Shown here in pieces: positions 28,451-63,120 of a stretch of 64,000 bases of DNA; within the stretch, counting starts at the first letter, position 1, and every line of letters begins with the position of its first letter. The DNA is from an uncultured Treponema sp. (GTDB lineage: Bacteria > Spirochaetota > Spirochaetia > Treponematales > Treponemataceae), in assembly GCA_963539665.1 (NCBI GenBank), contig CAUTOX010000002.1:787-64786 (forward strand), written 5' to 3'. The position numbers and the translations under genes are program-made. A model generated the notes under the pieces. The model worked only from the letters and a program-made list of their open reading frames with translations, did not search any database and was not told the origin of the DNA.

Positions 28451-28485
28451 CTCCTTATAAAAAAATAAATGAATCGTTCAGCATG

Positions 28486-28522
28486 AGACCTGTTCTGAAA
28501 CTAAAGTTTCAGAACAGGTCTA
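28486..28522. mobile_element. Minimal palindromic MITE copy (termini only), probably also a bidirectional terminator
   Basis: AGACCTGTTCTGAAACT-AA-AGTTTCAGAACAGGTCT is a perfect 17-bp inverted repeat. Confidence 0.6.
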
Positions 28523-28583
28523 TTATCGGCAAGAGTACCGAATTACGCGGCATCGGCGCATCGTTGCAAAGCCTGCCGGATGT

Positions 28584-30370: not shown

Positions 30371-30488
30371 CCTGCGTTTAGGGACACGCTTGCCATAATA
30401 CAGAGCGAGGTTCTTTTTTCCGGCAGGAGTTTTAAGAAAATGATGGCTACAATCATCAATTGTGCAATAGAGCTGTTCGATAACCCCA

Positions 30489-30589
30489 TTATCGAACAGG
30501 TCAACGATCTAAATCGTTCTATTTGCGCAAGTTAGATCATCGTATTTTAAAGTAACCAGTTCTGAAACTGAAGTTTCCGAACAGGTCTA
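30489..30589. mobile_element. Inverted, slightly truncated copy of the TAGACCTGTTCG-type MITE
   Basis: TTATCGAACAGGTC..CTAAATCGTTCTATTTGCGCAAGTTAGAT..AGTTCTGAAACTGAAGTTTCCGAACAGGTCTA is collinear with the reverse complement of 52712-52835. Confidence 0.7.
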
Positions 30590-31188
30590 ATATAATGAGG
30601 TCAGGCTATTTTTGCTTTTGTTGGGGTAAATAAAATTCTAAGAACGTGTTTGAAGTCTTCTATGAAGCTAATTTTAACTGGTTAAATGGAATAATTTTCA
30701 TATATTTTAGGTCTTTTTCAATCAATGAGACGTAAAATAAAGCTTGTTTCGCTTGAAACAGCGGTCTCGTTGGAAAAACAAAAAACGCAAGGCTAATAGC
30801 GCTTTGTAATCTATAGTATTGAGCGTTATAGCAATCTTTTATATAAGACTTTAAACAAGTTCTGAACTACAGAACTCCGGAGGCTGTTTATTCAAAAATT
30901 GCATCCTGCGGCGCGGAGGCTCAAATTTTGACAAATCAATGAACAAAAAGTAGAATAGGCCCGTTCGTAAACTTTATTGTCGAACAGGTTTAATCAACAT
31001 CCTTCAGGCAGGTATCGGGGGCTGTTGTTCCAATAAGGTGGTTGTAGGCAACTTTAATCCTCATTATTACGATGCAGGGTGTTGGGGGATTAAAAATTTC
31101 GCACGAATAAACCGAAAAACGCCCTGCGTTTGTTTAGAAAAAGTTTATATCTGACAGAGCTTTTGCCCGCACGGAGAATCATGACGTT

Positions 31189-42664: not shown

Positions 42665-44905
42665 TTAGCGCGTTCGTATTTCTTGCCATCCCAGCACCCG
42701 CTGCTTCATTCCGGCGATATCCAGCACCCCTAAGGCAAATCCTTTGCGTACCAGCTCAGAGGGAACATACTCGTCGTATTTGTCAAAGACGGGGACTTCG
42801 TTTTCGTACACAAGCTCCAGCGGGTCAAAGTTTTGTGCGGCTTCTTCGGCAATAATGCGATAGAATTCCTGTGCGCTTACCTGCATGGTAAACTGTAGGT
42901 AGTACGGTCTGGACGGACTCAAGCCTTTGAGCCCAAGCCGTGCACCGCAGCGGAGCTTGAGAAAGCGTTCCAACGCAAGAAAGGCATAGCTGCCCAGCTG
43001 AGGAAAGAGCGCCCACATAGAGCCGCCGAGGGAAATGAGCGGGTGAGTGTCCATCCCTGCCTTGCTGAACGTATTCCGCGCTTCCTGCAAACGGCACACG
43101 GCATGGCGCATCAGGTACGGATAGCTTTTCTGTTCGGCAAGAACAGTATGCATCCGTTCCAAGATACAGGTGTGTATATCGCCTGCCACATCACCGAAAT
43201 ACGCAGGGATATTCCCCTTTACCAGCGTACAGTATACCTCGCGGCGCTGGTGATCCACCTCGTCCACTGCCCACACCCTGCCTGCAATAGCTATCTTCTC
43301 GCCCGCAGGCGGCGGTTTGACGATTGTTCCCAGCTCTTCGGAACCGGAACGCACCGTGTATTCGATATTTTCTTGGAACACTGCGTAAAACTTATAATTG
43401 TTGACAACCCGCTCCCCGGTAATCCCGACAATCAGCCCGCCGTTTTCCGTGCGGTTGATATGATCAATAGTGATAAGGTGCCGGAGCAAGGTACGGAAGT
43501 CCTCCTGACTGATGCGGCGGAATACCGAAAGGGTCAGTACTCTGGAGGCCAGCTCCGCCGGTGTCATCTCACCTGAGGAGGCAAGCGTACTCATGGTCTG
43601 GTGATAGAGCAGGGAGAAGGGCAGCTTTTCCGTGCGCGGCGGTTCCACAAAGCGCTCTTCGATATAAAGCTGAACAAGTGCAATTCCTTGAATAAGATAC
43701 CACGGAATCATCTCCGGCAGCATCGCCCGCGCTTCGGGATGATCTTCCCGCATAACAAACCACATTTCCGAAGGAGTGCCGCGCCGTCCGGTACGTCCCA
43801 TACGCTGTAAAAAACCGGAAACGGTAAAGGGTGCATCAATCTGGAATGCCCGCTCCAGTCTCCCGATATCAATCCCCAGTTCCAGTGTAGCGGTAGCGCA
43901 CACACTGATAAGCGAGTCGTCATTCTTCATCTCCTCTTCCGCACTTTCGCGGTACGAAGCGGAAAGGTTGCCGTGGTGAATTAAAAAGCGGTCGGGTTCG
44001 TGATTAGCTTCACAGTATTGCCGGAGGTGCTGGCATACGGATTCGCACTCCTCGCGGGAATTGGTAAACACGAGGCATTTTTTACCGCGGGTATGCTCAA
44101 AGATATAGCCCATCCCCGGGTCTGCGGCCTTGGGGGCAGTATCCGTCGCGGGTTCTACCGTAAGCGCTTCGATGGTAATAGGCTTACCTTCGTCAGCTTG
44201 CGGCTCCGTATTGAAGAAGTGTTCCATCGAAAGCCGCCACACCTCTTTGCCGCCGTCGCATTTGGGGATAACCGTTTCTCTCCCGCTGCCTGCAGCAAGA
44301 AAGGCTCCCGCTTCTTCGGGATCGCCGAGTGTGGCGGAAAGACCAACCCGCCGGGGATTGCAGCCCGCCGTCCGGCAGAGCCGCTCAATTAAGCAAAAGG
44401 TTTGCCCGCCGCGGTCGGCACGCAGCAGGAAGTGGACTTCATCAATGACGACAAAGCGTAGGTCATGGAACAAAGAGGGTATTTCGCTCTGCTTGGTGAT
44501 CATCAGCGCTTCAAGGGATTCCGGGGTGATCTGCAAAATCCCCGCCGGTTTACGGAGCAGCTTCCGTTTTTGGCTTTGCGGCGCATCGCCATGCCATCGC
44601 GTTACGGCGATTCCTGCTTCCTCGCACAGCTCGTTCAGCCTCCCGAACTGATCATTGATGAGCGCCTTGAGCGGAGCGATATACAACACTCCCACCGAGG
44701 CAGACGGCTCTTCGTACAAGAGGCTCAGGATTGGAAAAAACGCCGCTTCGGTTTTGCCGGAGGCGGTGGATGCCGTCAGCAGCACATTGTTATCGGTATT
44801 GAAAAGAGCATCGCCCGCCGCATTCTGCACCGCGCGAAGCGTCTGCCAACCGGAGCGGTAAATATAATCCTGTATAAAAGGGGCGTATTGATTAAAAATG
44901 TCCAT
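42665..44905 (-). CDS. DEAD/DEAH-box SF2 helicase (Lhr-like; SngC-like component of a Shango-type system)
   Basis: Motif I ASTASGKTEAAF, motif II VVIDEVHFL, motif III GLSATLG, motif VI QRMGRTGRRG. There is a long C-terminal extension. Confidence 0.8.
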   Translation of the reverse strand: MDIFNQYAPFIQDYIYRSGWQTLRAVQNAAGDALFNTDNNVLLTASTASGKTEAAFFPILSLLYEEPSASVGVLYIAPLKALINDQFGRLNELCEEAGIAVTRWHGDAPQSQKRKLLRKPAGILQITPESLEALMITKQSEIPSLFHDLRFVVIDEVHFLLRADRGGQTFCLIERLCRTAGCNPRRVGLSATLGDPEEAGAFLAAGSGRETVIPKCDGGKEVWRLSMEHFFNTEPQADEGKPITIEALTVEPATDTAPKAADPGMGYIFEHTRGKKCLVFTNSREECESVCQHLRQYCEANHEPDRFLIHHGNLSASYRESAEEEMKNDDSLISVCATATLELGIDIGRLERAFQIDAPFTVSGFLQRMGRTGRRGTPSEMWFVMREDHPEARAMLPEMIPWYLIQGIALVQLYIEERFVEPPRTEKLPFSLLYHQTMSTLASSGEMTPAELASRVLTLSVFRRISQEDFRTLLRHLITIDHINRTENGGLIVGITGERVVNNYKFYAVFQENIEYTVRSGSEELGTIVKPPPAGEKIAIAGRVWAVDEVDHQRREVYCTLVKGNIPAYFGDVAGDIHTCILERMHTVLAEQKSYPYLMRHAVCRLQEARNTFSKAGMDTHPLISLGGSMWALFPQLGSYAFLALERFLKLRCGARLGLKGLSPSRPYYLQFTMQVSAQEFYRIIAEEAAQNFDPLELVYENEVPVFDKYDEYVPSELVRKGFALGVLDIAGMKQRVLGWQEIRTR

Positions 44906-45075
44906 CGTGTTTTCTCTGTTGAGCAGTGTACCTTCTTGTATACATTTGAATCACCGCCGTTCATGTCAGTACTGAGAATGATGTATCCAGTCAGTTCACC
45001 CGTCGGTTATTCCTCTGCATTCTTAGCGTCTTCACGGTTTATCTTTAAAGTAACCGCGGAAGTACGCGCAGGTAC

Positions 45076-45978
45076 CTATAGCGCTTCGACTTCTGCTGGA
45101 GAGATACCGGCTATTTTGCAAATATCTGTAAGGGGATAGCCCATAGAGAGCATCATTTTTGCCGTTTCGAGGGCTTTTTGACGAGAGCCTTGAGATATTC
45201 CTTGGGATATTCCTTGGGATATTCCTTGAGATATTCCTTGAGCAAAAGCTATTCTGCCTGCTTCTTCTCTCTGTACCGCAATATCGGTATCGTAGTCATA
45301 TTCGGCTACCAACATATTGATTACCTCCCGTGATTTTCGTTGTAGGTATTCTTTTAAGATTCCTTTTTCTATACATATCTTTACTGCATTGGTAAAGCCG
45401 TTTGCGCTGTCGAGTTGGGTTTGTTTTCTTACCTCTTCTACAAACAGGCTGTATTCTTCAAGCGGCTTGCAGGCTGCTAAGACTTTGTTCGCCTTATCTG
45501 TATTGATGTTCAAAACCTGTACAGTCAACTCCAGCGGGGCATGCTCGGGTTTTGTCATAAATGCATCTGAAAGCTTTAGAGTCGCGGTTTCAGGGTAATC
45601 TTCCAGCCCATTGTAAAATACATAGAACTCCGGAGCTGGTATCTTTGATAACTTTCTTAGATATCTGTCTGTTGGTGCTTGTAACTTTTCATAGATCCTT
45701 GCGATGTATTCCAAAAAGCGTAGGGGCATATTCTCGTTTACCGTAGACTGATGCTCCGCAAGAACGATGATTTTATTGTCCACAAGGCAAGACACATCGT
45801 TGATAATGTTCATGTACATGACATTATCAAGGCGTATGTTTTCTACCGGGCATGAAAGCTGTAAATTAGTATTATGCAAGGCATTATAGAGTGATAAAAA
45901 GTTCTCTTTAGCTTTTTCATCCTCACTGAATAGATCAACGAACACTGAATCTTTATATTTCCTGTTTGCCGTACCCAT
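45076..45978 (-). CDS. Rpn-family recombination-promoting nuclease / putative transposase (PD-(D/E)XK)
   Basis: 300 aa. YKDSVFVDLFSEDEKAKENFLSLYNAL...IIVLAEHQSTVNENMPLRFLEY. Paralog of 190..1068. Confidence 0.8.
   Translation of the reverse strand: MGTANRKYKDSVFVDLFSEDEKAKENFLSLYNALHNTNLQLSCPVENIRLDNVMYMNIINDVSCLVDNKIIVLAEHQSTVNENMPLRFLEYIARIYEKLQAPTDRYLRKLSKIPAPEFYVFYNGLEDYPETATLKLSDAFMTKPEHAPLELTVQVLNINTDKANKVLAACKPLEEYSLFVEEVRKQTQLDSANGFTNAVKICIEKGILKEYLQRKSREVINMLVAEYDYDTDIAVQREEAGRIAFAQGISQGISQGISQGISQGSRQKALETAKMMLSMGYPLTDICKIAGISPAEVEAL
45188..45243. repeat. 12-bp in-frame tandem repeat, about 4.6 copies, encoding (GISQ)4 in the Rpn C-terminal region
   Basis: CCTTGAGATATT / CCTTGGGATATT units run consecutively at 45188-45235, followed by a partial unit. 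Confidence 0.9.
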
Positions 45979-46222
45979 AACTGTTCATCCTATTCCGGCA
46001 AGGATACCGGTCGGTCAAAACTCACCCCGAACCATATGCAAGGATGCACAAGGTTTGTTATAGCATAGACCGCCAGATTTTTAAAGATACATAGAAGACT
46101 TAACCGCCAAAGCACAAAGTACGCTGTTAATTGGTTGTACGTCACTGTATGCAGGAAAAACTATGTAAAAACTCGCTGCTGCGCATTCCTTCGGCCATCC
46201 ATCACTCTTCTGCGCACTCACC

Positions 46223-47554
46223 TTAAATCGTAAACTCGGCATAGTTTTCATCGGTGGTGTCCGATACCGCATCAGACTTTGCGTACGAAAATGTATCGGA
46301 GTTTAGTAGCTCGATAATGCTCATTCCCGGATTTTGGTACAAAATATCCAGCAGCTCGATAAAATCCCGGATTACTTCGCGCGGGGTGATATGCACATCG
46401 GCGCCGATCCGCTCATATTCAATTCTGATAAACGCCGCCAAGTCGTCCGTGGTGATTTTCTGCTCATAGCCGTAGAGACCTGCGTGCATCGCAGCGAGCT
46501 TTTCACAGAGGATCAACATTTCTTCCGCAGTAATCGGGTCAAGCCGGATTACCGGCGCAAGTAAGTCCCGTGCACCGGGCTTGGAAAACTTCCCCTCTGC
46601 AAGACGGGAGCGGAGCGCCTCGTAGCTGTACACACCGCGCCGCTTATCCTCTATCGCCTGCGGTGTCGCCCCCATGATAATACCGAGGTATTTTGCCTTT
46701 CCTTGTAAGGTGTCGTTGTACATGGTGAGGAGTTTTTCGTAATTGTACTGGCGCGTGATGGAGTTGGGAACTTTATAAATATTGACGAGTTCGTCGATCA
46801 TAATCATCATGCCGGAATAACCCGCCAGCCGGAAAAATGTTGCAAAGAGCTTGAGATACTCGTACCAGTCATCATCCGTAATAATGATATTAACACCGAG
46901 TTCTTCCTTTGCTTCGCGCTTGAGGGCATATTCGCCCCGGAACCACCGCACTACTTTTGCTTTCGTTTCATCATCGCTCTTGAGGTACGCATGATAATAG
47001 GCTGAAAGTAATTGAGCAAACTCAAAACCGTGTACCAGCTCGCTCACCGAAGCGGTTACCGCGTAAATCTTTTGATCGACAAGCGCAGTCAATGCCGGAT
47101 CTCCGGGTTGAAGCCCGCTTTCTTGCAAGGCTTCACTTTGCACGGTGCTGATCCACCGCTCCAATATCAGCGTGAGTGCACCGCCCTCCGGTTTTGTCTT
47201 TGTGGAAAGATTCCCGATCAACTCGCGATAAGTTGCAAGCCCCTGTCCCCGCGTTCCTTGCAGCCTCCGTTCCGGCGACAGGTCTGCATCCGCAACAATG
47301 AACCCGCGATCCATCACATAATTCCGGATAGTTTGCAGTAAAAAACTCTTTCCCGCTCCATACCGCCCGACAATAAAGCGGAACGAAGCGCCGCCTTCGG
47401 AGATAATATCAACATCATGCAGCAAGGCTTGAATTTCATTTTTCCTACCGACGGTGATATACGGCAGCCCGATACGGGGCACTACACCGCCTTTTAAAGA
47501 ATGCAATACCGTCTGCGCAATCCGCTTTGGAACTTTTCTTTCCGCTTCGTTCAT
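46223..47554 (-). CDS. DUF2791/BrxD-like ATP-binding protein (SngB-like)
   Basis: 443 aa. The N-terminus LKGGVVPRIGLPYITVGRKNEI, then Walker A VGRYGAGKSFLL and Walker B MMIMIDELV, match the DUF2791 'BREX system ATP-binding' architecture. Confidence 0.75.
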   Translation of the reverse strand: MNEAERKVPKRIAQTVLHSLKGGVVPRIGLPYITVGRKNEIQALLHDVDIISEGGASFRFIVGRYGAGKSFLLQTIRNYVMDRGFIVADADLSPERRLQGTRGQGLATYRELIGNLSTKTKPEGGALTLILERWISTVQSEALQESGLQPGDPALTALVDQKIYAVTASVSELVHGFEFAQLLSAYYHAYLKSDDETKAKVVRWFRGEYALKREAKEELGVNIIITDDDWYEYLKLFATFFRLAGYSGMMIMIDELVNIYKVPNSITRQYNYEKLLTMYNDTLQGKAKYLGIIMGATPQAIEDKRRGVYSYEALRSRLAEGKFSKPGARDLLAPVIRLDPITAEEMLILCEKLAAMHAGLYGYEQKITTDDLAAFIRIEYERIGADVHITPREVIRDFIELLDILYQNPGMSIIELLNSDTFSYAKSDAVSDTTDENYAEFTI

Positions 47555-47805
47555 GTTATTTTATCTCCCACTATCCAGGACAACCGCATACGAATATTTT
47601 AAGCAGTTGTCTTCATTTTGTGCGAAATTTTTGAGAAAATTTCGCACAGGTTATTTTAAAAGCATAGAGCAATCGCATCAGAAGTGTAGATCGAATTCCG
47701 CAAAATAATAGGTTGGGCAACCATTTGAGATGCAACGCATCGAAATTCTGGTTGAACGGCCTATTATTTTGCGGGGGATTTACAATAGCCTCTGATGCGA
47801 TTGCC

Positions 47806-49923
47806 CTATCCCAATATCCCGATAATATCATCACGATAATCTTCCACAAGGGTAATTGTTTTACCGTCGCATTCTACCACCGTATCGCCGATAAGATCAA
47901 ACAATGCCTCGTTGATAGCATCGGCGATAACGCTCGGCATTCCATGCTGTGCTGCAATCAATTCCTGCACCGGCTCTCCGCGGAGCAGCATTTGCATCAA
48001 CTGGGTCTGCATACTATCCAATGGAAGAGCTTGTGCCCCCTTCATCGCTTGTTGGTATTCCCCGTGATTGTCGAGCAGATTTGTCTGACTCTGCGTTGTC
48101 GCCTTTTCTGCTGCGCCCGTATCATCTTGAGCGATAGGTGGTGGACTTTCTTTTTGTTTTACAGAAATAACCGCACGGTCTACCGCTCCAAGCTTCTCTT
48201 CTTCTGTCAAAAGACTGGACTGCGTTTTGAGCGCATCCTGTCGGATTTTATTCAGACCGGAAAAGTCAATCGTAATCTTCTGCCGCGCGGCTTCGATTTT
48301 GGCTTTTCGATCCGCTTCAATAACAGCTTCAATGTAGGGGACTGCCCATGCCGCTTCTTTCCGCTCTTTTAATGGATGTTTCGTTTTTAGATAGAGGCGT
48401 AAGCGCCGGTCGGTTTCATGGAGAAGATCGACGAGCCGCTGTTTTTGAAAAGAAGACTTCTGATATGACCGTATATACCATTCTTTATTCTTAAAAATAT
48501 ACGAGCGGCAGGAAGTCAATTCATACGTAAAGGATTTTTTTATTTCCTTGTTATGAAAAAATACACCGCTCAGAGGATACCATGGTGTGGAACTCCGAAT
48601 ACCGAAGCACAGCCTAAAAAGAGTTTGTCCATTTTCACGGTACTGTGCCGTAACGAGGCGAAATACTGCGGCAAAGAGTTTGACTGCTTCCGCGCCATAC
48701 AGCTGTATCACCGTTGATTCGGCGGTTTTCTTTTTGCCGAACTTACAAAGCGCCTTAAACACTTCGGCATCGCTGTATTTTTTAGGATGGCGCAAAATTT
48801 CAATCTCTGCATCTTCTTCCAACAATTCTTGATCAATATAAAGGCGCGCTGTTGTCGGCTCGATATTGTTCACTACGGCAAACTCCAGCGCCCATTCATG
48901 CAGTCTTTTTTGCAGAGTTTGACCGCCAAGTCCGGCATCGATATAGGCTCTTTCAAATTCTTGTATTTTTCTCAGACTGTCTTCCGCAGAGACCGCTCCG
49001 ATTCCATTCAACAGCTCTAACAGATAAATAAAAACAAAAGCTTCGCAGTGTTTTTGAAAATTCCCTTTCCGCAGTTCTGTCCGCCACGTAAAATATCCGC
49101 GCAGCTGCTTTATGGATAAATCATGATAGGTCATAAAACCATAGCTATATAGGTCTCCATACCAAGGGACATTATCTTCATAGTCCTCCATGAACTTCCC
49201 CTGTATATAGAAGTTTTTGTATCTCAATTCAAAAGAAAGAAGGAACCTCTCTTGGTAAAGAGCCTGCATCTTGCGTATTTGCTCAGGAACCGCCTGTTTC
49301 TTTTTTTGAACTTTTGCTTTTTTCTCTGTTTTTGAATTTGCATCTCCTATCTGCTGTTGCTTCTGATTTTTACCATATAAAGGCGTTTCCTTGTATTGCG
49401 TCTTCTCATGAATATCCGCATGGAGGACTAGCGTGCATCCTTTTTGTTCATCGAATGCCTCGCCCCCGCCCGGTGCCGTTTGAACTGCTGCTCCTGAAAT
49501 TACCGGTTCAGGCAATGCTTGAGCAGAAAACTTTGAGTGCGCTTCATCGCGTGTATTTGAGGGCTGATCAGTATTGTTCGTATTATGGGAAGGATGATTT
49601 TCTGCATAAAAAAGCACTGCTGCCATGTGTTTGCAATTATTACCACTTGTCGCATGAGGGCACGAGCAGTCCATATTGGAAACGCCGCCATCGGAAAGGG
49701 ATATGCTGACAGTGTAGATTTCAGAGCCCGCTACGTTTGCACGGATTTTTTGCTCGTTCCTCTCGAATGAAGCAACACAGCCGTGCTTGTAATAGTTCAA
49801 TCCGCGATTTAGTATTTTATCAGCAAATAAAGCGTTCCAATCCATAAGCCGGTATGCTAACACAACATGACTTCTTGTCAATATACGACAAAACCGATTG
49901 GAAAAATACCATATTAGAGCCAT
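47806..49923 (-). CDS. SWIM zinc-finger + TerB-N + TerB-C domain protein (SngA-like)
   Basis: SWIM CxCxnCxH motif: MDCSCPHATSGNNCKHMAAVLF. A low-complexity linker follows. TerB-N-like block: HDLSIKQLRGYFTWRTELRKGNF...FVFIYLLELLNGIG. TerB-C-like tail: LDSMQTQLMQMLL...IADAINEALFDLIGDTVVE. The more likely start is MDWNALF at 49845. Confidence 0.7.
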   Translation of the reverse strand: MALIWYFSNRFCRILTRSHVVLAYRLMDWNALFADKILNRGLNYYKHGCVASFERNEQKIRANVAGSEIYTVSISLSDGGVSNMDCSCPHATSGNNCKHMAAVLFYAENHPSHNTNNTDQPSNTRDEAHSKFSAQALPEPVISGAAVQTAPGGGEAFDEQKGCTLVLHADIHEKTQYKETPLYGKNQKQQQIGDANSKTEKKAKVQKKKQAVPEQIRKMQALYQERFLLSFELRYKNFYIQGKFMEDYEDNVPWYGDLYSYGFMTYHDLSIKQLRGYFTWRTELRKGNFQKHCEAFVFIYLLELLNGIGAVSAEDSLRKIQEFERAYIDAGLGGQTLQKRLHEWALEFAVVNNIEPTTARLYIDQELLEEDAEIEILRHPKKYSDAEVFKALCKFGKKKTAESTVIQLYGAEAVKLFAAVFRLVTAQYRENGQTLFRLCFGIRSSTPWYPLSGVFFHNKEIKKSFTYELTSCRSYIFKNKEWYIRSYQKSSFQKQRLVDLLHETDRRLRLYLKTKHPLKERKEAAWAVPYIEAVIEADRKAKIEAARQKITIDFSGLNKIRQDALKTQSSLLTEEEKLGAVDRAVISVKQKESPPPIAQDDTGAAEKATTQSQTNLLDNHGEYQQAMKGAQALPLDSMQTQLMQMLLRGEPVQELIAAQHGMPSVIADAINEALFDLIGDTVVECDGKTITLVEDYRDDIIGILG

Positions 49924-49943
49924 CTGGCAAGAAGTGAGCGAAT

Positions 49944-52450
49944 AGGATTTAATTTTGCAGTCCGCCGTCCTCCGGTGTGTTTGTGTAAACCTGCGAGGGG
50001 GAAATGCGTTGGGGCGGGCGGGATGAATTTTCCGGCGGAGTTAATTTTGCAGTCTGCCTACATCCGGCGTGTTTGGCGCAAACTGGCGAGAGAGGAATAC
50101 GTTGGGGCGGGCGGATGGATTTTTTCAGACGGATTTAGCTTTACCATCCGCTTGCCTCCGGCGTGTTTGGCGCAAAACGGCGAAAGGGGATGCGCTGAGG
50201 CTGGTGGGATGGATTTTTCTGACGGATTTAATTTTACCGTCCGCTTGCATCCGGTTTATTTGGCGCAAACCGACAAGAGGGAATGCGTTGGTGCGGGTGA
50301 GATGGATTTTTCCAGCGGAGTTAATTTTACCGTCTGCCTGCATCCGGCGTGTTTGTGCCAACCGGCGAGGGAGAAATGCGTTGATGCGGGATGGATGGAT
50401 TTTCCGGCAGAGTTAGTTTTACTGGCTGCCTGCATCCGGTTTGTTTGGCGTAAACCGGCAAGAGGGAATGCGTTGGGGCGGGCAGGATGAATTTTTCCGG
50501 CGGAGTTAATTTTATCGTCCGCCGGCCTCCGGTGTGTTTGGCGCAAACCAGCGAGAGAGGAATGCATTGGGGCTGCCGGGATGGATTTTCCGGCGGAGTT
50601 AATTTTACTGGCTGCCTGCATCCGGCGTGTTTGTGCAAACCGGTGAGAGAGGGAAATGCGTTGGGGCAGGCGGATGGATTTTTTCCAGCGGATTTAATTT
50701 TATCGTCCGTCTGCATCCAGCATGTTTGGCGCAAAACGGTGAGAGGGGAATGTGTTGGAGTGGGCAGAGGGATTTTTTCCAGCGGATTTAGTTTTACCGT
50801 CCGCCTGCATCCGATTTGTTTGGCGCAAACTGGCGAGAAGGGAATGCGTTGGTGTGAGCGGATGGATTTTTTCAGATGGAGTTAATTTTACCGTCCGCCT
50901 GCATCCGGTGTGTTTGCAACCGGCGAGAGAGGAGTGCGTTGGTGCTGACGGGATGGATTTTTCCAGCGGAGTTAATTTTATCGTCCGCCTGCCTCCGGTG
51001 TGTTTGTGCAAACCGGCAAGAGGGAATGCGTTGGGGCGGGCAGGATAGATTTTTTCAGATGGATTTAATTTTACCGGCCGTCTGCATCCGGCGTGTTTGT
51101 GCAAACCGGTGAGAGGGGAATGCGTTGGGGCGGGATGGATGGATTTTCTGGCGGAGTTAGTTTTATCGTCTGCCTGCATCCGGCGTGATTGGCGTAAACC
51201 GGAGAGAGAGGAATGCATTGGGCGGGCGGATAGATTTTTTCAGATGGACTTAATTTTACCGTCCGTCTGCATCCGGCGTGTTTGTGCAAACCTGCGAGAG
51301 GGAATACGTTGGGGCGGGCGGATGGATTTTTCAGATGGATTTAATTTTATCGTCCGCCGGCCTCCGGCGGAGTTAGTTTTACTGGCTGCCTGCATCCGGT
51401 GTGTTTGTGCCAACCGGCGAGGGAGAAATGCGTTGGTGCTAGCGGGATGGATTTTCCGGCGGAGTTACTTTTATCGTCCGCCTGACACCGGTTTGCGTAT
51501 GCAAAACGGTGAGAGGGAATGCGTTGGTGTGGGCGGAGGGATTTTTTCCAGCGGATTTAATTTTACCGTCCGCTTGCATCCGGCGTGTTTGGTGCAAAAC
51601 GGTGAGAGGAGGATGTGTTGGTGCGGGCGGGATGGATTTTCCGATGGATTTAATTTTACCGTCCGCCTGCATCCGATTTGTTTGGCGCAAAAAGGCGAGA
51701 GGGAAATACGTTGGGGCTGACGGGATGGATTTTCCGGAGGATTTAGTTTTACCGTCCGCCTGCATCCGATTTGCGTGTGCAAACCGGCGAGAGGGGAATG
51801 TGCGGGTGCTGGCGGGCTGGATTTTTCCGGCGGAGTTAGTTTTACTGCCTGCCTCCGGCGTATTTGGCGCAAACCGGCGAGAGGGGAATGCGTTGGTGCG
51901 GGCGAGATGGATTTTTCTGACGGATTTAATTTTACCGTCCGCTTGCATCCGGCGTGTTTGGCGCAAAACCGGAGAGAGAGTACCGCGCTGGTGCTGGCGG
52001 GATGGATTTTTCCGGCGGAGTTACTTTTGCAGTCCGCCGTCCGCCGGCGTGATTGGCGTAAACCGGAGAGAAAGGAATGCATTGGGCGGGCGGATAGATT
52101 TTTTCAGATGGATTTAATTTTACCGTCCGTCTGCATCCGGCGTGTTTGTGCAAACCGGTGAGAGAGGGAAATGCGTTGGGGCGGGATGGATGGATTTTTC
52201 GGATGGATTTAATTTTACCGTCCGCCTGACTTCGGTTTGCGTGTGCAAACCAGTGAGGGGAGTGCGTTGGTACGGGCGGGATGGATTTTTCCGGCGGAGT
52301 TAATTTTACTGGCTGCCTGCATCCGGCGTGTTTGTGCAAATCGGAGAGAGAGGAATGCGTTGGGGCGGATGGATTTTTTTCAGATGGATTTAATTTTACC
52401 GTCCGCCTGCATCCTATGTGCTTGTGCAACCGGCGAGAGGGAAACGACGC
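49944..52450. repeat. Array of about 27 degenerate tandem units of about 93 bp (hairpin-repeat family, minus orientation relative to the other clusters)
   Basis: Units start near 49947, 50040, 50133, 50226 and so on. Each contains TTAATTTTACCGTCCGCCTGCATCCGGCGTGTTTGTGCAAACCGG..GGGAATGCGTTGGGGCGGGCGGATGGATTTTT. Open reading frames appear in most frames on both strands. Confidence 0.9.
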
Positions 52451-52552
52451 TTGAAGACCGGACTCTAGTCGAGAACTCTTAAAAAAGGCTGCTGCCGCAA
52501 AACACTAAAAGCGGCAGCCGAACAAAACAGGCGCTCCTGCTGTTGGAAGAAC

Positions 52553-52695
52553 TTCTCTTCAGCATAATGAAGGGATGTCCTTCACGGTAATGAAGAACAC
52601 TCCTTCAGCATAATGAAGGGACGGCCTTCACGGTAATGAAGAACACTCCTTCTGCATAATGCAGGACAGCTCTGCACTATGCTGAAGGCAGAGGT
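52553..52695. repeat. Tandem 46-bp repeat made of two 23-bp half-units, about 3 copies, giving six phased CCTTCA-n6-TGAAG palindromes
   Basis: CCTTCAGCATAATGAAGGGATGT and CCTTCACGGTAATGAAGAACACT alternate. The offset between equivalent positions (52563, 52609, 52655) is 46. Confidence 0.8.
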
Positions 52696-52711
52696 CAGTT
52701 CCATCGTTCAA

Positions 52712-52835
52712 TAGACCTGTTCGGAAACTTCAGTTTCAGAACAGGCTACCTTGAAATGCGATGTTCTAAATCGTGCTATTTGCGCGATTTAGAACTCGAC
52801 GACCTGTTCGATAACTCTGTTATCGAACAGGTCTA
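52712..52835. mobile_element. Full-length (124 bp) MITE-like element with TAGACCTGTTCG...CGAACAGGTCTA termini and three internal palindromes
   Basis: TAGACCTGTTCGGAAACTTCAGTTTCAGAACAGG / TTCTAAATCGTGCTATTTGCGCGATTTAGAA / GACCTGTTCGATAACTCTGTTATCGAACAGGTCTA. Related copies lie at 30489-30589, 19350-19403, 28486-28522, 63021-63057 and 15844-15881. Confidence 0.7.
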
Positions 52836-53143
52836 ATCTCTATTCTCCGCTGCCCAACAAATTTCGTTTGAACCTAGTTTTGCCGCATGATAAAACGAGC
52901 GCGGGCGGTAACTCCGTTGCGTCTTTCAAATACCTTTTTTCTCGTCCGTAAAAGTCCATTTTCCTCCAAACATATCCATAATAGCATGGTTGTGGATATG
53001 CTCGGGCAGACGGAAGTTCTGTTATGTCTTTTAAACACTCTTTTTACCGCCCGCCGTTCCCATGTAAAAAGATTTCGTTATTTTGACAACCGGCGGTTTT
53101 ATTTATAGAATGCGGCTTCATATGACAGTTTGTAGGCGGGAAA

Positions 53144-55069
53144 ATGGCATACGTAAAAAATCTCTTCGATTCCAATTTTATTCAATATGCGAGTTATGTT
53201 ATCCGCGACAGGGCGATTCCCGAACTCATCGACGGCTTTAAGCCTGTCCAGCGGCGTATTTTGCATACGCTTTTGGAAAATGATGACGGCAAATTCACCA
53301 AAGTTGCAAATGTTGTCGGCAAAGTCATGGCATATCACCCGCACGGAGATGCGTCCATTTATTCCGCGCTCGTAAATCTTGCGAATAAAGAGATTTTTAT
53401 CGACAAGCAGGGGAACTTCGGCAATATGTACACCGGAGACAGCGCGTCGGCTCCCCGTTACATCGAATGCCGCCTCCGTCCCGTTACCAAAGAAATTATC
53501 TACAATCCCAAAATCACGCAGTACGTGCCGAGCTATGACGGACGCAGCAAGGAGCCGGTCGTATTCCGCGCAAAGTTGCCGCTCGTCCTTATCACGGGCG
53601 CGGAGGGGATTGCAGTCGGCATGAGTACGCAGATTTTAAGCCACAACGTCCATGAAGTTATCGAAGCCGAAAAAGCGTGCCTGCGCGGCGAGCCGTTCCA
53701 ACTTTTTCCCGATTTTCCGACCGGCGGGCTGATTGACTGCACGGAATACAAAGACGGACTGGGAAAAATCGTTGCGCGCGCCAAAATGGATACGAGCGAC
53801 GATAAAAAAATCGTTATCACGGAGCTTCCGTACGGCAGCACGTCGGAAAGTCTTATGGATTCGATTGAAAAAGCGGCGCGGAACGGCAAAGTCAAAATTG
53901 CGTCGATAAATGACTTTACTGCGGACACCGTAAATATCGAAATCCGCCTGCCGCGCGGCGTGTACGTCAAAGACGTTGTAGATTCGCTGTACGCATTCAC
54001 CGAGTGCGAAAAGACCGTCTACTGCAATCTGCTTGTTATAAAAGAAAATATGCCCGTTCAGATGACGGTAACGCAGGTTATTGAACACCATGCAAAGCAG
54101 CTGGTGGAAGTTCTGCATGACGAACTTGAGTTTGAAAAGTCGGAATTAAATGAAAAGCTGCACCTCCGGACGCTTGAGCGCATTTTTATCGAAGAGCGGA
54201 TTTACAAGTCGATAGAAGAGATGAAAACGGACGAAGCGGTCAAAGCGGCGGTCAAAGACGGCTTTATTCCGTTCAAAAGAGAGCTTTTGCGCGACGTAAC
54301 TGACGAGGACGTTGCTCACCTGCTCAAAATCCCCATCCGGCGCATATCGCTGTACGACATAAACAAAAACCGCGAGGAAGTGAACGCGATAAACGCGCGG
54401 CTTAAAGAAATTGCGCGCCTTTTGCGCCATCTTACCGACTATGCGCTCAGCTGGCTTGAGGGGATTGAAGCGAAACTTGAGCCGCCGCTCCTTACGCGCC
54501 GCACGACGCTCCAAACGATTGAAACAGTCGATGCGCGGAGCGTCGTCAAGCGCGATATTGCCCTGCGCTACGATGAACGCGCCGGTTATCTTGGTACGCA
54601 AGTGTATTTCGGAAGCGAATTGCTGAAAATCAGTCAATTTGACCGCATTCTCTACGTGCGGAAAAGCGGCATCTACACGGTTACGGAAGCCCCCGCAAAG
54701 GTTTTCGTTGGCCCCCAGCTGCGCTGCGTAACCTTTGCTGACAAGGAAAGCCTCGCAAAAATCCTGTTTACTGTCATTTATATGGAAAAAGAGACGCATC
54801 TGGCGTACATCAAACGCTGTAAGATTTCGGGCTACATCATGAACCGCGATTATTTTCTTGCGCCGGACGGAATGGACGTGCTGCACGTGGATATGCGAAA
54901 GAGTTTCACGTTTACGCTCCGCTACGTGCAAAAACCGCGCGTAAAAATCCTGACGGAAACATTTAAGGCCGAAAGTTTCCCGGAAAAAGGGCTGAAAGCG
55001 CAGGGCGTAAGAATTTCGGTAAAAGAGGCGGAAGCAGTTATTGTCGAAAATGAATCGGTAACAGGCTGA
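53144..55069 (+). CDS. parC: DNA topoisomerase IV / gyrase A-type subunit (short ParC-like form)
   Basis: DGFKPVQRRILH, AYHPHGDASIY and the active-site region SAPRYIECRL. At 641 aa it lacks a long C-terminal beta-pinwheel region, like spirochaetal ParC. Confidence 0.8.
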   Translation: MAYVKNLFDSNFIQYASYVIRDRAIPELIDGFKPVQRRILHTLLENDDGKFTKVANVVGKVMAYHPHGDASIYSALVNLANKEIFIDKQGNFGNMYTGDSASAPRYIECRLRPVTKEIIYNPKITQYVPSYDGRSKEPVVFRAKLPLVLITGAEGIAVGMSTQILSHNVHEVIEAEKACLRGEPFQLFPDFPTGGLIDCTEYKDGLGKIVARAKMDTSDDKKIVITELPYGSTSESLMDSIEKAARNGKVKIASINDFTADTVNIEIRLPRGVYVKDVVDSLYAFTECEKTVYCNLLVIKENMPVQMTVTQVIEHHAKQLVEVLHDELEFEKSELNEKLHLRTLERIFIEERIYKSIEEMKTDEAVKAAVKDGFIPFKRELLRDVTDEDVAHLLKIPIRRISLYDINKNREEVNAINARLKEIARLLRHLTDYALSWLEGIEAKLEPPLLTRRTTLQTIETVDARSVVKRDIALRYDERAGYLGTQVYFGSELLKISQFDRILYVRKSGIYTVTEAPAKVFVGPQLRCVTFADKESLAKILFTVIYMEKETHLAYIKRCKISGYIMNRDYFLAPDGMDVLHVDMRKSFTFTLRYVQKPRVKILTETFKAESFPEKGLKAQGVRISVKEAEAVIVENESVTG

Positions 55070-56216: not shown

Positions 56217-59210
56217 ATGAACGCTGCATTTGAAAATAACAGAGCGCAACTTTCACAGTTGACGGAATTATTTGAAAGGAATAAAAAGCAGTACAATACA
56301 TCGGCTTATGATGAAGCAAATACCCGTACCGATTTTATTGACAAGTTTTTTGAACTTTTAGGTTGGGATATAAGGAATGAACAAGGTTATTCTGAACAAT
56401 ATCGGGAAGTTGTGCGTGAAGACAAGGTAACGATAGCCGGAAGGGTGAAGGCTCCCGATTATGCCTTCAGAATAGGCAGGGTGAGGAAGTTTTTTGTAGA
56501 AGCGAAAAAGCCGAGCGTGAACATTAAAGATGACCTTGAGCCGGCGTTTCAGGTAAGGCGGTATGGGTACACGGCAAAACTCCCTTTGTGTATACTTACC
56601 GATTTTGAAGAATTTGCCGTGTACGACACCCGTATAAAACCTTCGCCTTCCGATAAACCAAGTACAGCCCGTATCTTTTACTGTACCTTCGATGAGTATC
56701 ATAAAAATTTCGATTTTATTTTTAACACTTTTTCAAAAGAAGCGATTTTAAAGGGCAGTTTCGATACCTATATTCAGGAGAACAAAAATAAAAAAGGCAC
56801 TTCCGAGGTCGACAAAGAATTACTAAAACTGATTGAAAGCTGGCGGACGGATATTGCAAAAAATATCGCACTGCGTAATCCTTCGCTCAATATTTATCAT
56901 CTAAACACTGCCGTACAAAAAATTATCGACCGCATCATTTTCTTGCGAATTGCGGAGGATAAAGAAATGGAAGAGTACGGACTTTTGCAAAAGATAACCG
57001 AAAGCGGCACAGTGTATCAAAAGCTGCAAGCTGTTTTTGACAGAGCTAATGCAAAGTACAATTCGGGACTTTTTAAACCGCATGACTGGCTCCGCAGTTT
57101 GACTATTGATGATGCGGTTCTTTCTTCTATTATAACAAGGCTTTATTACCCCGAATGTCCGTACGAGTTTTCTATTTTACCGGTGGAAATACTCGGCAAT
57201 ATTTATGAACAGTTTTTGGGAAAGATCATAAAATTCCGCAATATCGGAGGTCGACGTTTTGACGGGAGTCAAAACTCGGAGGTTTCGTCCGATAGGACGA
57301 ACACCCGACACACTGCGCTGATCGAAGAAAAGCCAGAGGTAAAAAAAGCCGGCGGTGTGTACTACACCCCACAATATATCGTCCGCTACATTGTAGAAAA
57401 TACCCTCGGCGTAAAAATAAAGGGGCAAAGCCCTGACGCTATTGCTCAGCTTAAAGTGGTTGATCCCGCCTGCGGTTCAGGCTCCTTTCTTGTTGAAGCG
57501 TATCAGCAGCTCTTGAATTATCATTTGGACTATTATTCAAGCGAAAAGGAGCAGAAGCTGGCTCTGAAAAAAAGCCGTATTTATGAATCAGGGCAAAATG
57601 TTTATAAACTCACTATTGAAGAAAAGCAGCGTATTTTGCTGAATAATATTTACGGAGTGGATATAGACGGTCAAGCTGTGGAAGTTACCAAGCTTTCGCT
57701 CTACTTAAAGCTGTTGGAAAATGAAGGGAGCGAAACGCAAGGGCAGTTATTTAAGTTTTCGGACATGAAGCTTTTACCCTCGCTCGATTCGAATATTAAA
57801 TGCGGCAATAGTCTTGTCGGTTCCGACTATTATAACGAAAAAGACGTAAGCCTTTTTGACGATGAAGTAATGCGGAAAATCAATACCTTTGACTGGGACA
57901 AGGAATTTCCGGAAGTCTTTGCTCAAGGCGGTTTTGACTGTGTGATTGGGAATCCGCCGTATGTGAACATCAGTGTATTTCCTGAACTGCACACATATTT
58001 GCAAATAACATATCCTATAATACACACAGGTTATAACGATTTGATGTATTATTTTATGTATCGCGGTATTGAGTTCTTAAAAGAAGATGGATTGTACGGT
58101 ATTATTACTTCAAATTATTTTTTGGGAAATGAATATGCGAAAAAATTACGAGTCTTTTTATCCGACAAGATTACCAAAATTTTAAATTTTAAAAATGCAA
58201 AAATATTTAGCGCAAATGTACATACTGCATTAGTATTTGCAGAAAAACATACAACAAATGACATCGATATTTTTACATATTCAAGCGATAAAGCTCCTGA
58301 TTCCGTAATTATAGAAAATGATTACTCATATATCACGATGAAAAGGAATACACTCAGTGAAGTATGGATTCTTGCCGATAGCAAAAAACAGCATGTTATT
58401 GACAAAATGAAAACAGATTCAATATATCTTGGTGATATAATGATTATCGAAAAAGGATCATCATCAGGTAAAAATGATATTTTTACAGTACCGCTTTCCG
58501 TTGCGGAAGAAGGTGCTTTTGAAAAAGACCTTATACGAAAAAATATAAAAAACGGCGATATTCATAGATACCGTTTAGAAAATAGGAAAACCGTTCTGAT
58601 TTATACAGATAACAAAACCGACATAAAAAAGTATCCGAATATTTATAAATATCTTTCAGCACATAAAAAAGAACTCAGCAACAGAAATGAGGTTTCAAAA
58701 GGAGCCTATGCATGGTATCGATTAGAGCGCCCTCGTGATAAAAATATTTTTGATGCAAAAGAAAAATTGATTGTCCCATATCGGGCAACACAGAATCGCT
58801 TTGCATATGATAATCAACAGTATTTCAATGACGGCGGTGATATCCGTGCATTAGTAATGAAAGAAAATATGCCTTTTAATATTAAATATCTACTGGTATT
58901 ACTCAACTCAAAACTACACAACTGGTATTTTGGCTTTATCGGTAAATCAAAAGGAAATACGCGGGAATATTTTAATAAACCTCTTGCAGAAATTCCCATA
59001 AAAACTATTTCACCGGAGGATCAAGCCCCGCTTATCACTCTTGCAGACCAGATGCTTGAAACGCAACGCAGATTGCAGCAAGCCCTATCCGATGAGGATA
59101 AAAAACTCTTGGAACAACGAGCGGCAATTATTGATAAGCAGATAGATAAGGCGGTATACCAGCTATACGGCTTAACGGAAGAAGAAGTGAAGATTGTGGA
59201 GGGGGAGTAA
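56217..59210 (+). CDS. Type IIG restriction enzyme / N6-adenine DNA methyltransferase (single chain: N-terminal PD-ExK nuclease, Eco57I-type gamma-class MTase, C-terminal specificity region)
   Basis: HsdR_N-like nuclease motif APDYAF...FFVEAKKP. Helical linker ILGNIYEQFLGK. AdoMet motif VVDPACGSGSFLVEAY. Catalytic motif VIGNPPYV. 997 aa. Confidence 0.85.
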   Translation: MNAAFENNRAQLSQLTELFERNKKQYNTSAYDEANTRTDFIDKFFELLGWDIRNEQGYSEQYREVVREDKVTIAGRVKAPDYAFRIGRVRKFFVEAKKPSVNIKDDLEPAFQVRRYGYTAKLPLCILTDFEEFAVYDTRIKPSPSDKPSTARIFYCTFDEYHKNFDFIFNTFSKEAILKGSFDTYIQENKNKKGTSEVDKELLKLIESWRTDIAKNIALRNPSLNIYHLNTAVQKIIDRIIFLRIAEDKEMEEYGLLQKITESGTVYQKLQAVFDRANAKYNSGLFKPHDWLRSLTIDDAVLSSIITRLYYPECPYEFSILPVEILGNIYEQFLGKIIKFRNIGGRRFDGSQNSEVSSDRTNTRHTALIEEKPEVKKAGGVYYTPQYIVRYIVENTLGVKIKGQSPDAIAQLKVVDPACGSGSFLVEAYQQLLNYHLDYYSSEKEQKLALKKSRIYESGQNVYKLTIEEKQRILLNNIYGVDIDGQAVEVTKLSLYLKLLENEGSETQGQLFKFSDMKLLPSLDSNIKCGNSLVGSDYYNEKDVSLFDDEVMRKINTFDWDKEFPEVFAQGGFDCVIGNPPYVNISVFPELHTYLQITYPIIHTGYNDLMYYFMYRGIEFLKEDGLYGIITSNYFLGNEYAKKLRVFLSDKITKILNFKNAKIFSANVHTALVFAEKHTTNDIDIFTYSSDKAPDSVIIENDYSYITMKRNTLSEVWILADSKKQHVIDKMKTDSIYLGDIMIIEKGSSSGKNDIFTVPLSVAEEGAFEKDLIRKNIKNGDIHRYRLENRKTVLIYTDNKTDIKKYPNIYKYLSAHKKELSNRNEVSKGAYAWYRLERPRDKNIFDAKEKLIVPYRATQNRFAYDNQQYFNDGGDIRALVMKENMPFNIKYLLVLLNSKLHNWYFGFIGKSKGNTREYFNKPLAEIPIKTISPEDQAPLITLADQMLETQRRLQQALSDEDKKLLEQRAAIIDKQIDKAVYQLYGLTEEEVKIVEGE
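57250..57305. repeat. Double-hairpin module inside the RM coding sequence (candidate in-frame repeat-element insertion)
   Basis: GTTTTGAC-GGGA-GTCAAAAC (57256-57275) and TTCGTCC-GATA-GGACGAA (57284-57301). The layout is the same as GTTTTGCC-GTA-GGCAAAA ... GGACG-GTA-CGTCC in the intergenic repeats. Confidence 0.55.
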
Positions 59211-59360
59211 TAATATTATGAGATATGATTATATGAATACAAAAAAACGATAACGGAAGATTTTAAACTATTAACAGCTCGTAATATAATAGATATTCTT
59301 GATGGTGATACAAAATTTGGTACATTTACATTTGAGAATGGCAAATATTTTGCAATTGCT

Positions 59361-60209
59361 ATGCCGTATTTAACAGGTCCAATGTTGTGTAGTATTTCAA
59401 CTCAATTCGGTCTTGCGGTTAGATACAATTTTGATACAACCAATGATAAAAAACAAAATAAAAGCAGATGGACATATCTAACTGATTTATTTGAATATTC
59501 TATTATGACCGGTTCTTGTTCAAATTTGCTATCATATCTTTTCGCACGAAAAAATTTTACAAATGAAACTTTTAAACAAAATATGAAAGATGATTCTTAT
59601 GGGTATCAAAATTATCAAGAGTTAGACGATAACGAAACTAATTATGCATACAAAATAATTATTGAACGAGTTATTAAAGAAATAAATGAATTATTAAAAT
59701 TTAGTCAAAAAGAACTCGCTATTGTATCAGATAATATTATTATAAAACCTATTACTGATGATATTAAAATTGAAACACCAAAAATAAAAAATATGGATGA
59801 TAAATATATTCAAAGTAAAGCTAACCAAGCTAAAGTTCATATCGAACAAGGTCAGTACGATACAGCCCTTACTCAAGCCCGCACAATATTGGAAGAAGTA
59901 TTTTGTTATGTCCTTGAAAGGAAAAATATAGAACCTATAGCAGCAGGAAAAATTGGAGAACTTTATAAACAAGTACGAGAAGTTTATAATATGCATATAG
60001 ATGATAATACTGATAAAAGAATAAAAAAATTATTATCGGGACTTAACACGATTGTTGATGCTATAGCGGAAATGCGAAATCAAATTAGCGATGCTCATGG
60101 ACAGGGTTCAAAAAGAAAAAGCATAAGAGATTATCATGCCCGACTCGCTGTTAATTCGGCTATTACGGCAGCAGAGTTTATTTTATCGGTATATGAACAT
60201 GCTACATAG
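59361..60209 (+). CDS. Abi_C-domain (abortive infection C-terminus) protein; the reading frame may begin at 59218 through a -1 shift at an A7 tract
   Basis: The C-terminus LSGLNTIVDAIAEMRNQISDAHGQGS...YHARLAVNSAITAAEFIL matches the Abi_C signature (RN..sdaHG). AT-rich. The in-frame open stretch extends upstream to 59229 without an ATG. Confidence 0.65.
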   Translation: MPYLTGPMLCSISTQFGLAVRYNFDTTNDKKQNKSRWTYLTDLFEYSIMTGSCSNLLSYLFARKNFTNETFKQNMKDDSYGYQNYQELDDNETNYAYKIIIERVIKEINELLKFSQKELAIVSDNIIIKPITDDIKIETPKIKNMDDKYIQSKANQAKVHIEQGQYDTALTQARTILEEVFCYVLERKNIEPIAAGKIGELYKQVREVYNMHIDDNTDKRIKKLLSGLNTIVDAIAEMRNQISDAHGQGSKRKSIRDYHARLAVNSAITAAEFILSVYEHAT

Positions 60210-60222
60210 CATAAAACTGTAA

Positions 60223-60350
60223 CAAGCCCTATCCGATGAGGATAAAAAGCTCTTGGAACAACGGACGACAATTATTGATAAGCAGATAGATAAGGCGGTA
60301 TATAAATTGTATAATTTAGCGGAAGAAGAAGTAAAGATTGTGGAGGGGGA
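60223..60350. repeat. Diverged direct copy (offset 1144 bp) of the last 128 bp of the RM gene (59079-59206)
   Basis: CAAGCCCTATCCGATGAGGATAAAAA.CTCTTGGAACAACG...ATTATTGATAAGCAGATAGATAAGGCGGTATA...GAAGAAGAAGT.AAGATTGTGGAGGGGGA is present at both sites. The second copy would encode ...QALSDEDKKLLEQRTTIIDKQIDKAVYKLYNLAEEEVKIVEGENDY*. Confidence 0.85.
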
Positions 60351-60352
60351 AA

Positions 60353-63001: not shown

Positions 63002-63024
63002 TTTTGGTAAACACGAATATTAAA
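62998..63024 (+). pseudogene. Stub of a PIN-domain (VapC-like) toxin gene, truncated by a MITE
   Basis: MILVNTNI is a typical VapC N-terminus (MxLxDTNI). The frame runs straight into the element at 63021-63057 and stops. Confidence 0.4.
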
Positions 63025-63057
63025 CCTGTTCGGAAACGCAGTTATCGAACAGGTCTA
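63021..63057. mobile_element. Minimal MITE copy (termini only)
   Basis: TAAACCTGTTCGGAAACGCAGTTATCGAACAGGTCTA is the left and right termini of the 52712-52835 element joined together. Confidence 0.6.
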
Positions 63058-63120
63058 TTATCATAGACTTTTGGAATAATCCTACAGCTGCTGTTGGAAA
63101 AAAACATTGGCTCTTGACTA

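Follow-up and report, generated by a model that had tools for sequence, protein, structure and literature searches.

Bacterial genomes tend to shed DNA without a use, and non-coding satellite arrays of kilobase length are uncommon in them. The locus described here raises the question of what such an array is and why it stands directly beside a defence operon. The array lies in a 64,000-nucleotide stretch from an uncultured gut Treponema (assembly GCA_963539665.1, contig CAUTOX010000002.1, positions 787 to 64,786; hereafter the window, whose own numbering is used throughout), where about 27.5 head-to-tail units of roughly 93 bp occupy positions 49945-52443, just upstream of the operon for a Shango defence system. 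On balance, and with somewhat more confidence than doubt, we favor the view that it is a non-coding bacterial minisatellite, that is, a tandem DNA repeat of the variable-number (VNTR) type with no specific product. Taken as a whole, this view holds that the array is probably a recombination-driven, near-neutral minisatellite in a variable defence hotspot.

The array, its units and its variants in other strains

The array is real and lies in non-coding DNA. Tandem Repeats Finder (TRF) reports a single array at 49945-52443 with a period of 93; its rows also include overlapping descriptions at 185 and 278, with 74-78% matches and 4-7% indels, and the copy number at period 93 ranges from 15 to 27 depending on the row. 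Anchoring on the best-conserved 18-mer of the unit core gives 28 unit starts, made up of 26 full unit spacings of 90-95 bp, one spacing of 32 bp and a partial final unit. A 27-nt core pattern has 20 matches with at most 3 mismatches, compared with 0 expected in shuffles, and none of its matches in the window falls outside the array. An earlier reading of this DNA made from the letters alone (the sequence-only reading) had placed an array of this position and unit size, with this number of units, between the defence operon and parC, and in these respects it was correct; the operon lies on the minus strand and parC on the plus strand. The features of the array are as follows.

49945..52443, plus strand G+T-rich: tandem array with 28 unit starts of about 93 bp (TRF, core anchoring, unit alignments A1 and A2)
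51319..51350, no strand: truncated unit 16 of 32 bp, an internal deletion scar (32-bp spacing between core matches)
50874..50908: inverted repeat A, example CAGATGGA-N13-TCCGCCTG around the conserved AT-rich core GTTAATTTTAC; in every unit, alignment columns 27-34 and 48-55
50903..50927: inverted repeat B, example CCGG...GTTTG/CAAACCGG (a shortened copy in this unit); in every unit, columns 59-70 and 74-82

The plus strand of the array consists of 34.5% G, 19.2% C, 28.1% T and 18.2% A, and its GC skew is close to +0.29. All of the roughly 93 nt of each unit belong to the repeat, and there is no unique segment. The units are less alike than the 85-90% estimated by eye in the sequence-only reading: pairwise identity averages 73% with a maximum of 87%, TRF gives 78% matches, and overall identity is about 73-78%. 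Identity is independent of lag, the distance between units within the array. We rejected a higher-order periodicity for this reason, despite one two-unit block that recurs, 51103-51358 matching 51966-52226 at 88%; the recurrence noticed earlier at about 51175-51290 and 52040-52160 is therefore real. Exact repeats within the array are short, the longest measuring 54 nt, and 35 pairs reach at least 25 nt. The best-conserved block of the unit is the core TTTTC..GGA.TTA.TTTTA. Substitutions between units are mostly transitions, among which G>A (92) and C>T (79) predominate, and A/T positions mutate about half as often as the others. The array has no similarity outside itself, and we therefore rejected an origin from a dispersed element resembling repetitive extragenic palindromes (REP-like) or from flanking sequence.

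The array is non-coding. Open reading frames (ORFs) of 60-207 aa do lie on both strands, and the sequence-only reading had put them down to composition rather than coding, a judgment that our results bear out. The ORFs shift frame relative to the unit, and frame-breaking unit lengths are present in all three strains examined (13 of 26 units in the window and 16 of 20 in L083, a second assembly, have lengths that are not multiples of 3). Stop-free stretches reach at most 224 codons out of 833 for the window and 172 out of 525 for L083. No codon periodicity is seen in the way the units vary (phase means of 0.139, 0.144 and 0.146; permutation p = 0.98), and a query in which the four open frames were concatenated, also to catch spurious ORFs of related arrays, found no homologue among 5.8 billion proteins. 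Nor do the conspecific assemblies have an intact ORF at the place of the array, the finding that the sequence-only reading had named as the sign of a decayed repeat-protein gene. In-frame units, codon-periodic variation and homologues, by which a tandem-repeat protein gene would be recognized, are all lacking.

Human-gut metagenomes are the source of the conspecific and sister sequences; the ParC of the host is 78% identical to that of T. porcinum. The same array adjoins sngA, the first gene of the Shango operon, at the same junction in four further assemblies from four sample or run accessions (L080, L083, L084 and L085), and the contigs of L080 and L085 end after 1.3 units. In L083 the flanks are 95-97% identical to those of the window, and the order is REP element, mini-tandem, terminator, at least 22 units with a scaffold gap, and sngA. 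In L084, a 23.8-kb contig, these flanks enclose only five units. Between the same flanks there are thus 27.5 units in the window, at least 22 in L083 and 5 in L084, all counted in short-read metagenome assemblies. The content of the array is mosaic as well. Five L083 units are clearly orthologous to window units at 90-100% (x17-19 correspond to w05-07 at 94%, 100% and 90%, and x21-22 to w27-28 at 98% and 100%), and the remaining 16 have best matches of 82-89% that are non-collinear only. In L084, a 195-nt stretch 100% identical to window 50165-50358 lies beside 2.3 units at about 75% and is then fused to the right flank. Of unit 1, on the promoter side, there are at least four versions with 76-81% identity to one another, and the adjoining promoter gap is 93-96% identical. 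Similarly, the 125 nt next to sngA differ by about 21% between the window and L080, compared with 10.7% at the 4-fold degenerate sites of sngA. A diverged unit 1 beside a conserved gap, together with this disparity, fits unit replacement rather than orthologous drift. From these assemblies, both copy number and unit content appear to differ between strains. Head-to-tail units in non-coding DNA and a copy number that varies between strains, here in short-read assemblies, are the features by which a minisatellite or VNTR locus is recognized.

Position and probable origin of the array

The flanks of the array contain the signals that bear on whether it is transcribed.

49846..49944, minus strand: conserved gap separating the array from the start of sngA (promoter scan; 93-96% identical in four other assemblies)
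49881-49854, minus strand: σ70-like candidate promoter TTGACA-16-TAGCAT (promoter scan)
49930-49903, minus strand: σ70-like candidate promoter TTGCCA-16-TATTTT (promoter scan)
52483..52520, minus strand: intrinsic-terminator-like hairpin GGCTGCCGC...GCGGCAGC followed by T6 (read from the sequence and folded)
52557..52668: small 46-bp hairpin tandem with 2.4 copies (TRF); L083 lacks one of the copies
52700..52840: dispersed REP-like palindromes, copies of which also lie at other places in the window (self-BLAST)
53083-53111: candidate parC promoter, to the right of the REP-like palindromes and followed by parC

The annotated start of sngA, ATG 49845, is 100 bp from the array. The distance of about 20 bp given in the sequence-only reading fits the longest ORF, which starts at ATG 49923, and not the 679-aa product of the record. 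That reading had also reasoned that any promoter of the operon must lie in or right next to the first unit; two candidates do lie in the 100-bp gap beside it, and none is predicted inside the units by the promoter scan. Matches of the units to the σ54 and σ28 consensus are poor, as judged by eye. On the other side, L084 also has the terminator-like hairpin, and L083 is about 97% identical to the window around it. The form of the hairpin suggests that it would end minus-strand transcription just before the array, and the pocket between this hairpin and the Shango promoter is probably untranscribed.

We picture the history of the array along the following lines. An ancestral segment of about 93 bp, which by chance contained two short inverted repeats, would have been amplified long ago, and its copies would then have drifted to about 75% identity. 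The residual exact matches between them would permit occasional unequal homologous recombination of the RecA type, or slippage, and such exchanges would delete, duplicate and reshuffle whole units, which would account for strains with 5, at least 22 or 27.5 units of mosaic content. On the minus strand the array would sit between an intrinsic terminator and the Shango promoter with no predicted promoter within it, and its effect would be neutral or at most that of a spacer. The recombination mechanism, the lack of transcription and the neutrality are what we infer.

The minisatellite would have arrived with one part of the neighboring operon rather than with Shango as such. The adjacent minus-strand operon is assigned to Shango by PADLOC profiles, and its genes are these.

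47806..49845, minus strand: sngA (SWIM, TerB_N and TerB_C domains), the first Shango gene (Pfam; PADLOC SngA 2.6e-66)
46223-47554, minus strand: sngB (PADLOC SngB 5e-190; Pfam)
45076-45978, minus strand: YhgA/Rpn-like gene between sngB and sngC (Transposase_31, PD-(D/E)XK; Pfam)
42665-44905, minus strand: sngC (PADLOC SngC 2e-280; Pfam)

The sngA product is identical to the 679-aa database product P0246, and ParC is identical to P0258. The comparison covered one locus outside the lineage, that of Treponema sp. OMZ 855 (L081 and L082; L081 is CP051194.1, compared with window positions 42679-48026). It is 96% identical to the window at the DNA level over sngC, sngB and the 3' end of sngA, and only about 69% identical in the 5' half of sngA. 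The locus lacks a SWIM domain, an Rpn-like gene and an array; upstream of its sngA stands a methyltransferase gene, whose end is 25 bp away. The pattern of identity points to a recent horizontal transfer followed by module replacement inside sngA. Because the OMZ 855 Shango lacks both the array and SWIM, the array belongs with the SWIM-type 5' module and the promoter and not with Shango as a system; an array-free locus with 96%-identical sngB and sngC, the one comparator inspected outside this lineage, speaks against its being a general Shango part. Every array-bearing locus includes the YhgA/Rpn-like gene, which the OMZ 855 Shango locus lacks. Proteins of the Rpn type are nucleases that promote recombination, and they are also defence toxins.

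In sister-species loci, whose ParC is 92-93% identical, the region upstream of parC has either an insertion sequence (IS) element and a GH18 gene or an M23 peptidase gene, and no array. By this comparison the site of the array is a variable hotspot. A second defence cluster, of low GC content (30-37%), lies downstream of parC at 56217-62626 and encodes a type IIG Eco57I/MmeI-like restriction-modification enzyme, an Abi_C protein and an AAA_13 ATPase; the sister strains L006 and L010 have other genes in its place.

Several observations weigh against so neutral a view of the array. Units differ from one another by about 25%, compared with 0-10% for orthologous units or flanks between strains, so that the array is much older than the strain splits, and its persistence despite bacterial deletion bias could mean that it is maintained by selection. 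The period is kept within 87-95 bp, and a few G/C positions, along with the AT-rich core, vary hardly or not at all in the 43 units from two strains that make up alignment A2 (G33 and C49 of A2, which form a pair, are examples). Inverted repeats A and B taken together have a marginal excess of pairs changed on both sides (16 versus 10.5 in shuffles); 10 of 500 shuffles reach this count, and an excess of this size is one that the tool is stated to give falsely with related sequences. All array-bearing loci carry a rare SWIM N-terminus on SngA and the Rpn/YhgA-like gene, which in a single lineage amounts to one observation. Finally, the copy numbers were taken from metagenome contigs assembled from short reads, and such contigs can be chimeras of different strains. 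Given the persistence of the array, its tight period, its near-invariant G/C positions and its co-occurrence with the SWIM form of SngA, we have kept two functional explanations, one at the level of DNA and one at the level of RNA.

Alternative explanations

The explanation that best survives after the minisatellite, while still an unlikely one in our estimation, is that the array is a DNA-level platform of protein-binding sites beside the Shango promoter that sequesters, nucleates or insulates. A dimeric DNA-binding protein, possibly the SWIM domain of the SngA variant or a nucleoid protein, would bind the AT-rich core with its inverted GC-rich arms, and each unit would offer a second palindrome, GTTTG/CAAAC, in the manner of a sopC-type centromere or an operator array. 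The consensus does retain both inverted repeats, with 82% of cells in the 43 units paired for A and 83-88% for B. The trouble is that pairing over A and B combined (83.7%) equals that obtained with shuffled partners (82.7%) and so reflects the consensus rather than selection; the inner stem of B has no change on both sides. That the core is the best-conserved block of the unit also suits a binding site, but the core is A/T, and A/T positions here mutate about half as often anyway. The array is found only with SWIM-bearing SngA (the P0121 cluster), SWIM-less homologues such as that of OMZ 855 being without it, and it is old yet retained; against this, the co-occurrence comes from a single lineage, one strain appears to manage with 5 units, unit 1 beside the promoter is just 76-81% alike between strains, and no partition or dedicated DNA-binding gene lies nearby. 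The mismatches within the inverted repeats bear on the choice between DNA and RNA. G·T mismatches, which would wobble on the plus strand, number 37, and A·C mismatches, which would wobble on the minus strand, number 39. This equality fits a constraint on duplex DNA, or none, and not one on RNA; together with the dominance of G>A and C>T it fits mutation pressure on DNA rather than selection on an RNA helix.

We consider it distinctly improbable that transcription of the plus strand, whose RNA would be rich in G and U, yields one long repetitive non-coding RNA or a series of small structured RNAs working with the defence operon or regulating it. The array is without demonstrable fold signal, and covariation is marginal. 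The sequence-only reading had called the units structured, and folding does not support this: the minimum free energy (MFE) of the consensus unit is -35.7 kcal/mol versus -34.6 ± 3.6 kcal/mol in shuffles (z = -0.32) on the plus strand, and z is +0.15 on the minus strand. Windows of three units (279 nt) fold slightly better than shuffles and do so more on the plus strand (mean z of about -1.6) than on the minus strand (about -0.7), which, with the strongly strand-asymmetric base composition, is what can be said in favor of an RNA. The RNAalifold consensus keeps one 5-bp helix at -4.8 kcal/mol, the shortened remnant of inverted repeat A. Hairpin A has a covariation score reached by 2 of 500 shuffles, which is again marginal. 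The covariation test that the sequence-only reading had called for thus yields the small excess for A and B described above, and nothing for the long-range stem GGCGGATGG...CCGTCCGCC that it had proposed (492 of 500 shuffles do as well); a shorter local hairpin shares the 3' arm of that stem. Of the other two elements described at that stage, the hairpin is present in every unit as inverted repeat B, and the G-rich tail is the most variable part of the unit and has a canonical G-quadruplex (G4) motif in only one unit. With loops of up to 12 nt there is one canonical G4 motif in the array, and about 0.9 would be expected in composition shuffles at loops of up to 9 nt; a G-quadruplex or switch-region-like repeat was rejected on the grounds that there is one motif in the array and not one per unit. 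Further evidence against an RNA comes from the helix-breaking A·C mismatches, as frequent as G·U, from the lack of a σ70-like promoter inside or upstream on the plus strand and of a plus-strand terminator before parC, from promoter-side units that diverge about twice as fast as the 4-fold sites of sngA, and from unit content that is not conserved between strains. Rfam 15 gave 0 matches at E <= 1 over 49000-53500 and ARAGORN 0 tRNA or tmRNA genes, and a tRNA array or a member of an Rfam family was rejected accordingly.

To a combined proposal, that the array is a functional cis-partner of this Shango variant, we give little credence. Here the 93-bp DNA sites, or a transcript of them, would be recognized by the lineage-specific SWIM zinc finger, and the array would hold the sensor on the chromosome, set the expression of the operon or serve as a self-decoy, with a pool of more than 45 diverged units across strains kept by selection rather than drift.

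A decayed gene for a protein with 31-residue repeats is close to excluded and largely refuted already. The consensus period is divisible by 3 (93 bp being 31 codons), the consensus unit read from the sequence is open in 4 of 6 frames, and ORFs reach 207 aa; but the variation lacks codon periodicity, unit lengths break the frame in every strain examined, the protein search with all four open frames was empty, there is no start or signal context, and no strain has an intact ORF. An assembly artefact is the least credible explanation of all and is likewise close to excluded: the window does come from a 75.9-kb contig of a metagenome-assembled genome, and several other assemblies break in or near the region, but four further assemblies have the same repeat at the same junctions, which speaks against the assembly artefact that the sequence-only reading had named as a refutation, the array contains no exact repeat above 54 nt and can be resolved by ordinary k-mers, and the breaks near parC fall near a dispersed REP-like element and not in the array.

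Relation to known systems and neighboring elements

If the array is a minisatellite, it is an unusually long and diverged member of the bacterial VNTR kind. The mycobacterial interspersed repetitive units (MIRUs) are 40-100-bp intergenic tandem repeats. Like them, the array consists of head-to-tail, non-coding, intergenic units of tens of bp, with a copy number that apparently varies between strains and with slippage or unequal recombination as the presumed cause. Unlike typical VNTR loci it is long (27 units, 2.5 kb), and its units are more diverged (about 75% identity); it also differs from MIRU-type loci in having no sequence similarity to them, in not being inside an operon and in being mosaic between strains.

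The sopC centromere of the F plasmid has 12 units of 43 bp with an inverted repeat in each, and the array shares with partition centromeres of this type the tandem arrangement and the inverted repeat in every unit. It differs in being chromosomal, in having imperfect and drifting palindromes and in a copy number that apparently ranges from 5 to 27, and no Pfam domains of parA/parB or sopA/sopB-type genes were found in the large ORFs scanned over about 25-63 kb. As in clustered regularly interspaced short palindromic repeat (CRISPR) arrays, a long regular array lies by defence genes, and strains share some units and differ in others; in contrast to CRISPR arrays there are no unique spacers, the units vary by point substitutions that are mostly transitions, and no cas genes lie near the array, its neighbors being Shango, the Rpn-like gene, parC and housekeeping genes. 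Immunoglobulin switch regions and other R-loop-forming repeats are likewise kilobase-scale tandem repeats with one G-rich strand, but the array has one canonical G4 motif in 27 units and no predicted promoter for the G-rich strand. The RYYYAAC/GTTRRRY core sites of integron attC elements, such as those of attC clusters lacking an integrase (CALIN), are absent from the unit as judged by eye.

An exact-pattern scan for the repeat in 185,579 species representatives, fairly strict, gave no true match and 2 single chance matches. A two-unit periodic pattern gave 66 single matches in the metagenomes of the Joint Genome Institute (JGI) and 2 in IMG/VR, none of which resembles the unit by BLAST or TRF, and blastn against plasmid and phage collections gave no match; since the scanned patterns are fairly strict, diverged relatives may escape them. 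We found no description of such an array in the literature. The statement in the sequence-only reading that no described element has this unit therefore stands with respect to these collections, Rfam and the literature. For Shango in particular (SngABC; Millman et al. 2022 preprint, 10.1101/2022.05.11.491447; Johnson et al. 2023, PMC10250203), the titles and abstracts of the papers listed in the search give no sign of a repeat array. The operon that adjoins our array is Shango by PADLOC, and the closely related OMZ 855 locus is without an array.

Other non-coding elements of the window deserve mention. On the minus strand, 52478-52845 is a stretch of about 370 nt without an ORF that folds far better than shuffles (MFE -159.8 versus -99.1, z = -10.4). 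It is made of REP-like hairpins and the 46-bp hairpin tandem, has a clean intrinsic terminator at its end and has no Rfam match; it may represent a gene for a small structured RNA, or simply a stack of palindromic elements. Short-read contigs of this species break near the REP-like copy beside parC. The REP-like palindrome family, with examples GACCTGTTCTGAAACT-AAGTTTCAGAACAGGTC and GACCTGTTCGATAAC...GTTATCGAACAGGTC, is intergenic and recurs at 28473-28524, 29397-29472, 30456-30591, 30960-30995, 19347-19389, 15836-15878 and 63019-63059. The segment 28400-31200 is gene-poor, rich in these palindromes and coincident with the cumulative GC-skew minimum of the window, and large ORFs switch there from mostly the minus strand on the left to the plus strand on the right; this may reflect a switch related to replication, or simply an effect of orientation.

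The array also has practical consequences. Several short-read assemblies of this species have contig ends within or next to it, and gene callers run sngA on into the repeats. In P0247 (815 aa), P0251 (796 aa) and L083 (1993-4440) the extension exceeds 100 codons, and spurious N-terminal extensions have entered protein databases as a result. At the same time the array is a useful strain marker. It is an old array, with units about 25% diverged, that has nevertheless been retained and reshuffled between conspecific strains in a defence-island hotspot. Should it prove to be bound or transcribed in concert with the SWIM variant of Shango, it would provide a first handle on how this defence system is regulated or anchored.

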